Sequence record: MW508890.1
DNA: 52,770 nucleotides
Strand: one strand, 5' to 3'
From: Phage PEA2-3
This document shows positions 18,623 to 21,583 of the stretch, in pieces (the first letter of the stretch is position 1; every line of letters begins with the position of its first letter). The position numbers and the translations under genes were made by a program. Below the pieces are notes generated by a model that saw nothing but the letters and a program-made list of their open reading frames with translations, made no database searches and was not told the DNA's origin.

Positions 18623-18846
18623 TGATTGAGACTATGCGCACATCGGACATTACTGATATGGCTTCTGAAGCTGAGCAAGTTGCCCGGGACGCAGCGCTGT
18701 CGAACCGTGTCAGATACACAGGCGTAAGCCCGCTGACGTGCTACCAGTGTGGGGAAGACATTGAAGAGAAACGACGTCAGCTCTTACCCGGTACAGTATT
18801 GTGTGCATCCTGCGCGCAGTATAACGAGAAGAAAGGAAAGCGATAA
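18622..18846 (+). CDS. TraR/DksA-family C4 zinc-finger protein
   Basis: CYQCGEDIEEKRRQLLPGTVLCASCAQYNE, the CxxC-N17-CxxC pattern of phage TraR-like proteins. Confidence 0.65.
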   Translation: MIETMRTSDITDMASEAEQVARDAALSNRVRYTGVSPLTCYQCGEDIEEKRRQLLPGTVLCASCAQYNEKKGKR

Positions 18847-19124
18847 TGAAAGTAGATTTTAAAGAAGTTAATGCTCTTGTTGATAAACTGGAGTATCATT
18901 TCTGGCAGGTACCGAATACAACTGTAACTGTATGTGTGGCAACACTGGATGGCTTCCAGTTAGGTGTAGGTACTTCTGGTTGTGTTGACCCTGCAGAGTT
19001 CAATGCAGACATCGGCAAACAAGTAGCTCAGGACAATGCGCTTGCACAGGCTAAAGACCAAATCTGGTTACTGAAGGGCGCTGCTTTACGCGCTGATATG
19101 TTCCCAGGCTTCCTGCAGGCTTAA
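18846..19124 (+). CDS. Hypothetical protein
   Basis: 92-aa ORF with RBS gaaaggaaagcgata; last gene of the plus-strand block. Confidence 0.45.
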   Translation: MKVDFKEVNALVDKLEYHFWQVPNTTVTVCVATLDGFQLGVGTSGCVDPAEFNADIGKQVAQDNALAQAKDQIWLLKGAALRADMFPGFLQA

Positions 19125-19130
19125 TCAAAT

Positions 19131-19158
19131 AAAGGGGCCATCACTCGGCCCCTTTGTT
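19131..19158. terminator. Bidirectional terminator between convergent blocks
   Basis: aaa-ggggcc-atcactc-ggcccc-tttgtt where the plus and minus blocks converge. Confidence 0.6.
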
Positions 19159-19416
19159 ACTCCAGTTAATTATGCTGTCCATCTTGTCCGCACAATCATC
19201 AAGAGCTGTTCCACGTTCAATAGCTAACTGACCTATTGCCTTCCAGGTGTTACCTGTTAATTCAGGCTTATGGCATTTAACCAGGTACGCACCAGGCGGA
19301 TAAACCTTGACTACCCTGTCAACATAAACAACTTCAGGCTTATCAGCGCATGAGTTCAAGAACGGCAGAAGGAGCAACGGTATTAGCGCACGAATCATAT
19401 TTTGTCGCTTCGTCAT
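19141..19416 (-). CDS. Outer-membrane spanin (o-spanin) lipoprotein
   Basis: Signal peptide MIRALIPLLLLPFLNSC with lipobox-like Cys, small Pro/Cys-containing mature part; starts inside the i-spanin ORF in another frame. Confidence 0.5.
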   Translation of the reverse strand: MTKRQNMIRALIPLLLLPFLNSCADKPEVVYVDRVVKVYPPGAYLVKCHKPELTGNTWKAIGQLAIERGTALDDCADKMDSIINWSNKGAE

Positions 19417-19672
19417 ATTTACCCTTCTTATCACGCAGTTGTTGTTCAAGTTCAGCTATCTTACTGGCGCGTTTGGCTGAGGCCTCACGTTCATCCTTTA
19501 CAGAATTAATCAGCGTTTGATTAGCAGCAGACAACTCGCCATTAGTCTTGTTAAGCTGTTTGATTATACCGTCGCGGTCGGTAATATCGCCTTTCAGCTC
19601 ACGTACCCACAAAGACAGGAACACAATGGCGATGCCAAGAATAACTGCAATTATTGCACCGGTTTTAGACAT
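19343..19672 (-). CDS. Inner-membrane spanin (i-spanin, Rz-like)
   Basis: N-terminal TM segment AIIAVILGIAIVFLSLWV then a coiled-coil-like charged periplasmic region; directly downstream of the endolysin. Confidence 0.55.
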   Translation of the reverse strand: MSKTGAIIAVILGIAIVFLSLWVRELKGDITDRDGIIKQLNKTNGELSAANQTLINSVKDEREASAKRASKIAELEQQLRDKKGKYDEATKYDSCANTVAPSAVLELMR

Positions 19673-20226
19673 AACGCCTTTTCCTTTTGCTTACGTATTG
19701 TCAAGCCCCTGTACTTACCACCCATATCCCAGTCCGTTATGCGGTTACACATTTCAGTCCAGTTTTGTTTACGAGCAGCAGTATATATTTTGGTAGGTGA
19801 ACCATCCTTGTTCTTACGGAGTCTAGTGCAACCATGGTTAAATACCATAGAGGTCATGGCGCTGAACTGGTTCGTGTTCATATCTTTACCGTGGAACCAG
19901 TCATTAACACATTTTTCGGCCTCTTGAATATTCTTGACCCAGCGGTCAGCAATCTCCTGGTCTGTCAGGCCTTCGCGCCGTACAGCGGGCTCATCGCTGT
20001 AGATGCGGCTACCAATGCCAACTGTTAAATAACCAGTAGGGCATACATACGGGTTACGCATACAACCTTCTGCATTACCGATTATTTCAAGACCTTCTTT
20101 ATTAGTACGGACATGCGTACTAGTCATCGACAATACAAGCCCGATGATAGCCAGCACGCTGCAACCTCCTTTAGTCGCTGCTGATTTCAGACTCACGCAA
20201 CACCTCTTCTTTCGATGCGACTTCAT
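19651..20226 (-). CDS. SAR endolysin, P1 Lyz-like lysozyme
   Basis: Weakly hydrophobic Gly/Ala-rich N-terminal segment with Cys; IGNAEGCMRNPYVCPTGYLTVGIG and FSAMTSMVFNHGC, RGLTIRKQKEKALCL match P1 Lyz as I recall it. Confidence 0.85.
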   Translation of the reverse strand: MKSHRKKRCCVSLKSAATKGGCSVLAIIGLVLSMTSTHVRTNKEGLEIIGNAEGCMRNPYVCPTGYLTVGIGSRIYSDEPAVRREGLTDQEIADRWVKNIQEAEKCVNDWFHGKDMNTNQFSAMTSMVFNHGCTRLRKNKDGSPTKIYTAARKQNWTEMCNRITDWDMGGKYRGLTIRKQKEKALCLKPVQ

Positions 20227-20431
20227 CCTCTATCGGCTTCTTACGATTGTAATAATCCGACATAATTTTGGTTCGCCGTGTTTGGTTATACGTAACAACA
20301 ATCAGCATCACCAAGGAACTGAGTATACCGATAAGAGTACCCCAATCACTTAGTGATAAAGTACTTACTGTTATTGTTACCCAAGCCACAAACTGGCCAA
20401 TAAGGGAAGACTTGTCGTTGTAGTCAAACAT
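20171..20431 (-). CDS. Holin (two-TMD, pinholin-like)
   Basis: Start set at ATG 20431 after ggagat; two hydrophobic segments and a charged C-terminal tail; directly upstream of the SAR endolysin. Confidence 0.5.
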   Translation of the reverse strand: MFDYNDKSSLIGQFVAWVTITVSTLSLSDWGTLIGILSSLVMLIVVTYNQTRRTKIMSDYYNRKKPIEDEVASKEEVLRESEISSD

Positions 20432-20533
20432 CCCATATCTCCGGTTTATTGTATACCCAGAGTGGATTATAGCACGACTCAAGCGTAAAAGAAACACTAC
20501 CAGCAACTGCACAAGCTTGCTGGTAGCAATTAG

Positions 20534-21037
20534 TTACGGTCGTACAGGCCAGTCGATATGCGGCGCATCTGACATAACAAGCAGCAACAAATCGGCACGG
20601 AATTTATGGAGAGCGATAATACGTTCCTCATCTTCTTCAGTGTCGAGTTGTCCTTCAACCCAAGCCTGTTCTTCCTGCAGGCGTTCTTCTGCAATCACCT
20701 TCTGCAGTTCAGAGTGCTTAACAAACTTGCCATTAACGTACGACCATTCGTAATAGCAATCCGCAAACTTAGCAACAGGGACAGACTCAACAATATGCAA
20801 ATCGCAATTAACAGGAAACAGTAGCGTAGGATCGTTAGCATACGCGGCAACAGCATTGTACTTGTCCACAACAATGTAATGAACCAGCTCTTTATTCTTA
20901 GCCAGCTCTTTAGCCAGCTTGCGCCAGTCATTACCATTGTTATCCTTGATGAATACAACGCCTTGCTTAATCAGCGGAAGTGTCTCCGCCGTCCTTTGTG
21001 GGTTGTATTCTGTAAAGTTGAAAAATGACAGTTGCAT
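20534..21037 (-). CDS. Tail fibre assembly protein-like (paralogue 2)
   Basis: 167 aa; paralogous to 21041..21583; ends in HIDWPVRP; downstream of the fibre gene. Confidence 0.5.
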   Translation of the reverse strand: MQLSFFNFTEYNPQRTAETLPLIKQGVVFIKDNNGNDWRKLAKELAKNKELVHYIVVDKYNAVAAYANDPTLLFPVNCDLHIVESVPVAKFADCYYEWSYVNGKFVKHSELQKVIAEERLQEEQAWVEGQLDTEEDEERIIALHKFRADLLLLVMSDAPHIDWPVRP

Positions 21038-21040
21038 GGT

Positions 21041-21583
21041 TTACTCCGGCATAGGTGGAACAACCATAGCGGAACCAAGGTTAATGTCAAGACGATTGAC
21101 AGCAATCCTGTAATCACGCCATTTAGCAAATAGCTCTTTTTCTTCATCGGTAGCATTGCCACTATCAACTGTGTCACGTAAAACACTGACCTTGGTCGAA
21201 GCGATGGACAGAGCTTGTTCTTTACGCTCACGAGCAATCTCCTTCATCATTGGTGCGTTAAGCGTAAACTCTTTACCGTCGAACAGCCATTCGCCAACAG
21301 TCTCGAAGATGTTGAAAGGCGGGTCATACGTTACAACCATATCGCAACCCACAGGATGGAACATAGTCGGGTCGGTATGTGCCGCAATTACAACTCCGTT
21401 CTTATCTACCTGCAAGAACGTTGCGCCTTCGTATTTGATAGCGAACTCTTTTGCGAGATTATACCAGTCGCGACCTTCCTCATCCTTGAGGAAGATTGCA
21501 CCAGCATTTACAATGTTCTCGTTCTCTTCTGTTACCTCAGGATGGTACATGGTAAAATTACGGAACACTTTATGCTTAGTCAT
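21041..21583 (-). CDS. Tail fibre assembly protein-like (paralogue 1)
   Basis: 180 aa; shares FLKDEEGRDWYNLAKEFA and AAHTDPTMFHPVGCDMV blocks with 20534..21037. Confidence 0.5.
   Translation of the reverse strand: MTKHKVFRNFTMYHPEVTEENENIVNAGAIFLKDEEGRDWYNLAKEFAIKYEGATFLQVDKNGVVIAAHTDPTMFHPVGCDMVVTYDPPFNIFETVGEWLFDGKEFTLNAPMMKEIARERKEQALSIASTKVSVLRDTVDSGNATDEEKELFAKWRDYRIAVNRLDINLGSAMVVPPMPE

Follow-up and report, generated by a model that had tools for sequence, protein, structure and literature searches.

Does the lysis region of phage PEA2-3 encode an endolysin that would be held inactive by a disulfide in the manner of phage P1 Lyz, and at which codon does that protein begin? The window considered here is the whole 52,770-nucleotide stretch of DNA deposited as MW508890.1, which is a Rosemountvirus. 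Its 1.6-kb lysis-cassette region is 99.8% identical to that of Salmonella phage brunost and ~99% identical to that of BP63 and of numerous further Salmonella and E. coli phages ~52–53 kb in size. From the letters of the sequence, the first-pass annotation assigned a P1 Lyz-type SAR (signal-arrest-release) endolysin to an open reading frame of this region. That frame exists exactly as delimited, on the minus strand, but the ATG that opens it is probably not the start. The likely product of this Rosemountvirus gene is a SAR endolysin of class I (P1 Lyz-type) with 181 residues, beginning at GTG 20196. Residue numbers below refer to this form unless another is named, and the features of the locus are collected in Table 1.

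Table 1. Features of the endolysin gene and the surrounding lysis cassette, in window coordinates. Residue columns refer to the 97-sequence family alignment.
Feature	Position	Strand	Description
Open reading frame of 191 codons	19651..20226	-	From ATG 20226; first 10 codons (MKSHRKKRCC) probably untranslated
Endolysin CDS, most likely form	19651..20196	-	181 aa from GTG 20196; GH24 muramidase, P1 Lyz type
Predicted SAR segment GGCSVLAIIGLVLSMTST	20116..20169	-	Residues 10-27 of the 181-aa protein
SAR Cys C12, codon	20161..20163	-	Cys in 96/97; Cys22 in 191-aa numbering; P1 C13 column
Internal strong SD and GTG	20155..20171	-	SD AAGGAGGT at 20164-20171; GTG at 20155-20157, directly past the holin stop
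Catalytic/caging motif E43-G-C45-MRNPYV-C52-PTGYL-T58	20023..20070	-	E-8X-C-5X-T triad plus predicted caging Cys at +2
Catalytic Glu E43			Glu in 97/97; P1 E42 column
Cys at Glu+2, C45			Cys in 97/97; P1 C44 column
Triad Cys at Glu+9, C52			Cys in 97/97; P1 C51 column
Triad Thr T58			Thr in 96/97; P1 T57 column
Holin, 86 aa	20171..20431	-	phrog_1350 holin, E=2e-15; last 26 nt overlap the endolysin start
i-spanin	19343..19672	-	Rz-like, N-terminal TMD, DUF2570; PF10828, E=3.9e-7; phrog_214 Rz-like spanin
o-spanin	19141..19416	-	Rz1/LysC-like lipoprotein, signal peptide, lipobox LNSC; PF23793 LysC, E=8.7e-20; phrog_456
Extended -10 element TGcTATAAT	20466..20474	-	Upstream of the holin gene; single exact copy in the window
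Intrinsic-terminator-like hairpin	19131..19155	-	Cassette end; common to the convergent + strand gene; bidirectional terminator in the BP63 annotation

The family and fold of the protein are readily recognized. Among solved structures, phage P1 Lyz (1xjt, E=1.6e-42) is its best relative, and the two are ~47% identical across 173 aligned columns. A GH24 or T4-lysozyme-type domain is identified by the Pfam profile Phage_lysozyme (PF00959, E=7.7e-20), and the protein belongs with phrog_7, labeled 'endolysin'. The endolysin stretch IGNAEGCMRNPYVCPTG aligns column for column with IGNAEGCRRDPYMCPAG of P1 Lyz, and 13 of the 17 residues are identical. Judged at the level of sequence, the matches to P1 Lyz and to PF00959 are not due to chance. 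An NCBIfam search returned no specific SAR-endolysin model; the sole match was sub-threshold and to a GTA endolysin. An AlphaFold2 (AF2) model of the endolysin, built from 62 sequences, has a pLDDT of 89.5 and a pTM of 0.86. The model superposes on full-length P1 Lyz 1xjt with a TM of 0.81 and an rmsd of 2.5 Å over 175 columns, and much more poorly on secreted P1 Lyz 1xju (TM 0.58); the PDB titles identify 1XJT as the active and 1XJU as the inactive enzyme. Structures of T4 lysozyme likewise match the model in Foldseek. The assignment to the P1 Lyz type is thus supported in silico by the match to 1xjt, by the structural superposition, and by the cysteine columns that the two proteins share.

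Those columns were established with a family alignment of 97 sequences, which comprises the 181-aa endolysin, P1 Lyz, and 95 homologs drawn from a search of 5.8 billion proteins. Alignment with P1 Lyz had been proposed as a check on the annotation, and the outcome is clear: the SAR Cys, the catalytic Glu, and the cysteines two and nine residues after it occupy the columns of P1 C13, E42, C44, and C51. The claim that all three regulatory cysteines are conserved therefore holds (96/97, 97/97, and 97/97), and the lone sequence that lacks the SAR Cys is an N-terminally truncated gene call. The catalytic triad is defined as E-8X-C-5X-T, and the triad Cys of P1 Lyz is disulfide-bound until activation (PMC3556154). 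In the endolysin this triad is intact as E43-8X-C52-5X-T58, with Cys replacing the usual Asp. C45 is the caging partner of triad C52 by its position in the alignment, and the disulfide between them is predicted.

Correspondence between the two proteins extends to the remaining cysteines. P1 Lyz cysteines 13, 44, 51, 91, 118, 150, and 178 match endolysin cysteines 12, 45, 52, 96, 123, 150, and 176, respectively; each of the seven is kept in at least 95 of the 97 family members, and 96 of the 97 have exactly one Cys upstream of the Glu. The SAR Cys is encoded by TGC or TGT according to lineage, and the codon of the neighboring Ser runs through AGC, TCC, and TCA. At 31 residues, the spacing from the SAR Cys to the Glu is the mode of the family (48 of 96 homologs); in P1 Lyz it is 29. 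A pairwise HMMER alignment shifts the SAR Cys by three residues, and its equivalence with P1 C13 is visible only in the family alignment. Indels in the low-complexity N-terminus produce this three-residue offset, which is an artefact. One part of the earlier description does not survive: the catalytic Glu is not flanked by two cysteines. Both caging cysteines come after it (A-E-G-C...C), and this is so in P1 Lyz too.

Upstream of the catalytic body lies the segment that would tether the enzyme to the membrane. GGCSVLAIIGLVLSMTST consists of 18 uncharged residues with one Cys and a G/A/S/T fraction of 0.42, and the tail that precedes it carries a charge of +2 (two Lys). N-terminal tails range from +2 to +4 in all 96 homologs, and P1 Lyz and RrrD/R21 have the same +2 as the endolysin. 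The Hessa sum of the endolysin SAR segment is +3.2, compared with +0.46 for P1 Lyz, +0.78 for RrrD/R21, and -2.95 for the TMD of the adjoining i-spanin. The N-terminus had been characterized as weakly hydrophobic, Gly/Ala-rich, and containing Cys; the weak hydrophobicity and the Cys are both borne out, but the segment is Ser/Thr/Gly-rich instead. Reading this Cys as part of a lipobox was rejected: the Cys comes before the hydrophobic core, and the -3 position is a Lys. Comparison of the window with Loughboroughvirus phages S1 and ZCSE2 over codons 9–29 reveals 13 synonymous and no non-synonymous codon changes, so purifying selection on the SAR region is strong.

In the AF2 model, residues 14–24 form a helix (pLDDT 86–91) packed on the catalytic body as in 1xjt. 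The conservation of the Cys in 96 of 97 sequences and this confident packing argue that the SAR segment is retained, uncleaved, in the mature enzyme. Stable tethering is predicted with less assurance and is not guaranteed, because the SAR stretch, at 18 residues, falls short of the P1 Lyz one in both length and hydrophobicity.

Whether the endolysin possesses its conserved SAR Cys depends on a start upstream of position 20163, and the databases disagree on the start. An identical endolysin protein is present many times in GenBank, deposited with four different starts that yield 168 aa (75 contigs), 191 aa (14 contigs), 181 aa (one, LPSEYT), and 158 aa (one). GTG 20196 is served by the SD AAGAGGT at 20202–20208 (-7.1 kcal/mol), with a spacer of 5 nt as counted or 4 nt in the duplex fold. 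In S1 and ZCSE2, whose proteins are 93% identical to that of the window, no start remains except the counterpart of GTG 20196, which has an AAGAGGT SD just as in the window. In vB_SE1_KM (87%), an ATG stands at the 20196-equivalent codon, and a stop lies four codons upstream. The metagenomic homologs P0001–P0004 (82–87% identity) start with MSLKSTATK. Since the comparison of sister lineages leaves that start, the endolysin most likely begins at GTG 20196, with 181 predicted residues, one N-terminal Cys, and a +2 tail.

The commonest deposited form begins instead at GTG 20157, the call used for BP63 gp48, brunost_48, and SE13, and omits the N-terminal SAR Cys. Were it the only product, the 168-aa protein would be a cytoplasmic enzyme with neither a functional export signal nor the regulatory Cys, and a canonical holin would have to release it. 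Its initiation site has the strongest ribosome-binding site in the region, with an SD duplex of -12.3 kcal/mol and a 5-nt spacer, but both the GTG and the strong SD are missing from the Loughboroughvirus ortholog (GTA and GGTGG in S1/ZCSE2) and from vB_SE1_KM. Five codons separate the holin stop from GTG 20157, and three of them differ from S1/ZCSE2, all synonymously, including the Ser change from AGC to TCC; over codons 14–29 there are 10 synonymous and no non-synonymous changes. Because only synonymous changes occur upstream of GTG 20157, the stretch is translated in the endolysin frame. The residues upstream also align with the SAR domains of 95 homologs and of P1 Lyz itself, and a protein initiated at 20157 would open with half a hydrophobic helix and no charged tail. 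Exclusive use of this site is very unlikely. The same site is possibly a second initiation site, as its SD suggests, in which case Rosemountviruses would produce both the 181-aa SAR form and a 168-aa form devoid of Cys12, and the mixture would tune the timing or activity of lysis. Each of the two sites has a usable SD, and the internal one is kept in the window, BP63, and SE13. It is nevertheless lineage-specific, its Gly-Gly codons (GGA GGT) easily mimic an SD, and the sister lineages manage without it, which makes a pair of products improbable. There is some small chance that Rosemountviruses, and not their sister lineages, acquired in this strong internal site a dual-start endolysin with isoforms of 181 and 168 aa; if so, the shorter isoform could form a cytoplasmic or locked reserve that adjusts the timing of lysis, and the gene would be analogous to those of dual-start holins.

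Initiation at ATG 20226 would place 10 further residues before the 181-aa protein as a highly basic Cys-Cys cytoplasmic tail. Nothing interrupts the frame after this ATG in Rosemountviruses, and the 14 public contigs that give 191 aa carry such a call, yet the SD-like GAGG abuts the ATG at a 0-nt spacer, and in S1 and ZCSE2 a TAG two codons on closes the frame from its counterpart. In SE13, Cys10 of the 191-aa reading is replaced by Tyr through a base change that leaves the holin protein unaltered. The extension would contribute two cysteines and five positive charges and is present in no homolog; the resulting +7 tail and three N-terminal cysteines would be unique against the 96 homologs, which have a single N-terminal Cys and tail charges between +2 and +4. 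Added N-terminal positive charge blocks SAR release in the phage 21 pinholin, and the extra charge speaks against the 191-aa protein as well. That the longer protein is made is extremely improbable. There is scarcely any likelihood, either, that the N-terminal segment of the 181-aa protein serves as a signal peptide of the usual cleavable kind, or as an anchor that is never released, with cysteines that have a purely structural role. The segment is short, the TST past its hydrophobic core could be a poor signal-peptidase site, and four further conserved cysteines are presumably structural. A Cys in a discarded segment, however, would not persist in 96 of 97 sequences, the segment is modeled with high confidence on the catalytic body as in the crystal structure of active P1 Lyz, and a triad in which Cys stands for Asp occurs only in class I.

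The reading of the gene as a class I SAR endolysin starting at GTG 20196 fits within a recognizable cassette. The order holin, endolysin, i-spanin, and o-spanin, as assigned by sequence, is that of a complete lysis cassette. The 3' end of the endolysin gene and the i-spanin gene share 22 nt, and the o-spanin gene overlaps the 3' end of the i-spanin gene in the overlapped architecture. For the o-spanin, the SD at ATG 19416 is better than that at 19398 (-5.8 vs -1.6 kcal/mol). Overlapping + strand ORFs (e.g., 19517–19927) were rejected as genes; the homology and the synonymous-substitution signal all lie in the minus-strand frame.

Upstream of the holin gene, the element TGcTATAAT is the probable promoter of the lysis cassette. 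The sequence GTGCTATAATCCA is kept in five phages of three lineages, and its flanks diverge. A generic promoter scan missed the element because it has no -35 element. This conserved promoter-like motif was also considered as a recurrent phage promoter consensus, which was ruled out, with four matches in the window at up to two mismatches and 3.9 expected.

The holin itself was described in the first-pass annotation as a small protein with two TMDs. Its hydropathy profile reveals a weak TMD1 at residues 8–28 (mean KD 1.49) and a strong TMD2 at residues 30–51 (mean KD 1.96), both uncharged, followed by a charged, basic C-terminal tail. A Pfam search with the holin gave nothing significant, even at E<10, and its homologs are 60 phage records, all in this clade. 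Published topologies disagree: the BP63 annotation and the LPSEYT paper (PMC7142823) give one TMD, whereas the S144 paper gives two. The description is therefore only partly sustained, with a strong second TMD and a first that is weak; a two-TMD holin is plausible from the profile. A weak TMD1 together with a strong TMD2 is what would be expected if the holin were pinholin-like and its TMD1 releasable. The direct support for this is a weak pairwise match to S21 (20.8 bits, E=7e-4).

If the homology with P1 Lyz extends to function, a sequence of events can be proposed for lysis. The residue-level disulfide isomerisation of P1 Lyz was reportedly described by Xu and colleagues in 2005. By analogy, Sec would export the catalytic domain, and residues 10–27 would stay uncleaved and anchor the protein in the inner membrane. 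In the periplasm, a Cys45-Cys52 disulfide would lock triad Cys52 and keep the tethered enzyme inactive. Depolarisation of the membrane by the holin would then let the SAR segment slip out of the bilayer. The thiol of Cys12 would attack the Cys45-Cys52 disulfide, forming Cys12-Cys45 and freeing Cys52, and the protein would refold to an active muramidase. The muramidase would degrade the wall, after which the i-spanin and o-spanin pair would disrupt the outer membrane. Export, tethering, membrane release, and disulfide isomerisation of the endolysin are all inferred in this scheme from the behavior of P1 Lyz.

The endolysin adds one well-supported candidate member to the P1 Lyz class, and the biological weight of this addition is small. 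The class is large and uniform, with ~95 homologs that keep the seven cysteines, mostly from Pasteurellaceae, Vibrio, and enterobacterial phages and prophages. Of more practical consequence is the state of the public records. The commonest version of the protein, including the RefSeq entries of BP63 and SE13, begins midway through the SAR helix and lacks the regulatory Cys. Cloning the database 'endolysin' of these widely used Salmonella biocontrol phages would yield a truncated, partly hydrophobic, and possibly mis-regulated protein. In the literature on these phages, no paper was found that sets out the cysteine arrangement or the start-codon conflict, and both can be derived directly from homology. 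What is new is confined to the gene start and the loss of the regulatory segment in most database records.

Among described proteins, the nearest is that of the Rosemountvirus LPSEYT (AWW14736.1), which is the identical 181-aa protein in a phage 98.7% identical across the cassette. UniProt Q37875 is the entry for P1 Lyz. In the 2021 paper and record on phage S1 (Loughboroughvirus), the 181-aa ortholog is named 'SAR-endolysin' on the basis of a match to Q37875, and the 2020 LPSEYT paper (PMC7142823) predicts the N-terminal TM helix of the endolysin as a SAR domain. The SAR endolysin identity of the near-identical LPSEYT protein and of the orthologous S1 protein is thus already described; discussion of the cysteine arrangement and of the start-codon conflict was not found in the passages of the two papers that were searched.

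Two other groups of SAR endolysins resemble the protein less closely. R21 of phage 21 and RrrD of DLP12 (3HDE, 4ZPU) are class II enzymes that share with it a SAR N-terminus, the GH24 fold (Foldseek TM 0.66–0.68), and a small-holin partner; a sequence search of solved structures with the endolysin did not detect R21/RrrD at E<0.001. Class II SAR endolysins have an E-D-T triad, lack a SAR Cys, and rely on conformational repositioning alone for their regulation (bioRxiv 10.64898/2026.09.09.750462). Lyz103 of Erwinia phage ERA103 and phi-Ea1h Lyz are regulated by disulfide caging of the catalytic Glu. Like the endolysin, they have a GH24 domain and a SAR-type N-terminus that contains a single Cys; their regulation depends on thiols, as is predicted for the endolysin, and phi-Ea1h Lyz is 29% identical to the endolysin. 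The phi-Ea1h motif is D-C-E-G-C with Asp in the triad, whereas that of the endolysin is A-E-G-C with Cys in the triad. Membership of the Lyz103 type is ruled out by the Ala that precedes the Glu and by the Cys at the triad position; the flanking cysteines mentioned in the first-pass annotation fit the pattern of Lyz103 and phi-Ea1h Lyz, not that of P1.

P1 Lyz, the prototype class I SAR endolysin, has the same GH24 fold, E-8X-C-5X-T triad, and Glu+2 Cys as the endolysin; both also have all seven cysteines, a +2 tail, and an N-terminal segment of weak hydrophobicity that holds just one Cys. The two differ in the SAR stretch, which spans 18 uncharged residues in the endolysin and 20–24 in P1 Lyz and is the less hydrophobic in the endolysin, and in the offset of the SAR Cys within it, which is 2 in the endolysin, nearer the cytoplasmic end, and 8 in P1 Lyz. 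They differ also in genomic setting: the endolysin gene lies in a contiguous holin-endolysin-spanin cassette with its GTG 26 nt inside the holin gene, whereas no holin gene precedes lyz in P1. The Rosemountvirus endolysin is an ordinary member of the well-studied and already known P1 Lyz class.

The start of the endolysin is annotated inconsistently. Four starts are on deposit in public databases for the identical protein, giving forms of 168 amino acids (75 contigs), 191 amino acids (14 contigs), 181 amino acids (1 contig), and 158 amino acids (1 contig). The 168-amino-acid form is the commonest and is used in the RefSeq records of BP63 and SE13; its N-terminus falls in the middle of the signal-arrest-release (SAR) helix, and the regulatory cysteine, Cys12 in the 181-amino-acid numbering, is lost. 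Start calls also vary for P1 lyz, which in the Punavirus P1 record MH422554.1 (565-1164) is annotated from an upstream GTG, yielding 199 amino acids versus the canonical 185. This call is a further example of start-codon over-extension among the relatives of this endolysin.

The GTG at 20157, from which the 168-amino-acid form is read, lies in a distinctive setting. The holin stop codon TAA is followed directly by AAGGAGGT, a 6-nt gap, and then the GTG in the endolysin frame, an arrangement (-12.3 kcal/mol) that resembles a textbook start. This GTG could be a second initiation site for the endolysin. Alternatively, AAGGAGGT and the GTG could be merely a by-product of Gly-Gly codons. The site is found in the Rosemountviruses (the window, BP63, and SE13) and is missing from Loughboroughvirus and the further sister lineage vB_SE1_KM.

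Annotations also differ in where the o-spanin begins. RefSeq BP63 gp50 (219 nt) uses a TTG equivalent to window position 19359, just three codons ahead of the lipobox cysteine, so that the lipoprotein signal peptide is lost. The best Shine-Dalgarno sequence among the o-spanin starts belongs to the ATG at 19416, from which the protein has a normal signal peptide (MTKRQNMIRALIPLLLLPFLNSC).

Features of the lysis region and its neighbors in the window
Feature	Position	Strand	Basis
92-aa ORF, N4 gp49 / Sf6 gp66 family	18846-19124	+	PF13876, E=9.5e-16
o-spanin with its alternative starts	19141-19449	minus	
Internal SD-like site and GTG behind holin stop	20155-20173	minus	read from window sequence
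Region of conflicting endolysin starts	20155-20226	minus	public database records
Holin	20171-20431	minus	
Extended -10 element GTGCTATAATCC	20464-20475	minus	kept across phages while flanks diverge
Tail-fiber assembly paralog 1 (Caudo_TAP, lambda gpK-like)	20534-21037	minus	weak Pfam match, E=0.004
Tail-fiber assembly paralog 2 (Caudo_TAP, lambda gpK-like)	21041-21583	minus	good Pfam match, E=2.5e-13

The lysis cassette is probably transcribed from a promoter at GTGCTATAATCC, an extended -10 element conserved, between diverging flanks, in five phages from three lineages. The element occurs as a single exact copy within the window, and no recognizable -35 element accompanies it. Immediately upstream of the cassette, two Caudo_TAP paralogs stand in tandem. 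At the other end, the 92-aa ORF sits between a DksA-like zinc-finger gene and the cassette terminator. Some Rosemountviruses carry this ORF (brunost, swi3, SD350, LPSEYT, and SE13); in many others, including BP63 and yarpen, the alignment starts ~122 nt into the query, and the gene therefore appears to be absent there and variable.

Several records of this phage clade carry unexpected labels. One genome, with a 100% identical holin, is filed as "Listeria phage 220426122051", another as a Klebsiella phage, and another, 53,474 bp long, as an E. coli "plasmid". "Chromosomal" protein records of Salmonella, E. coli, and Enterobacter also belong to the clade. These are probably phage contigs within bacterial assemblies or host mislabels.

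A tblastn search finds homologs of the holin only in 60 phage records, all within this clade, and the published topology of the protein is disputed. The BP63 and LPSEYT descriptions give one transmembrane domain (TMD) or "class III", that of S144 gives two or "type II", and the ZCSE2 paper names the counterpart a "dsDNA binding protein". The first hydrophobic segment of the window holin is weak, as in the phage 21 pinholin, whose TMD1 is releasable.
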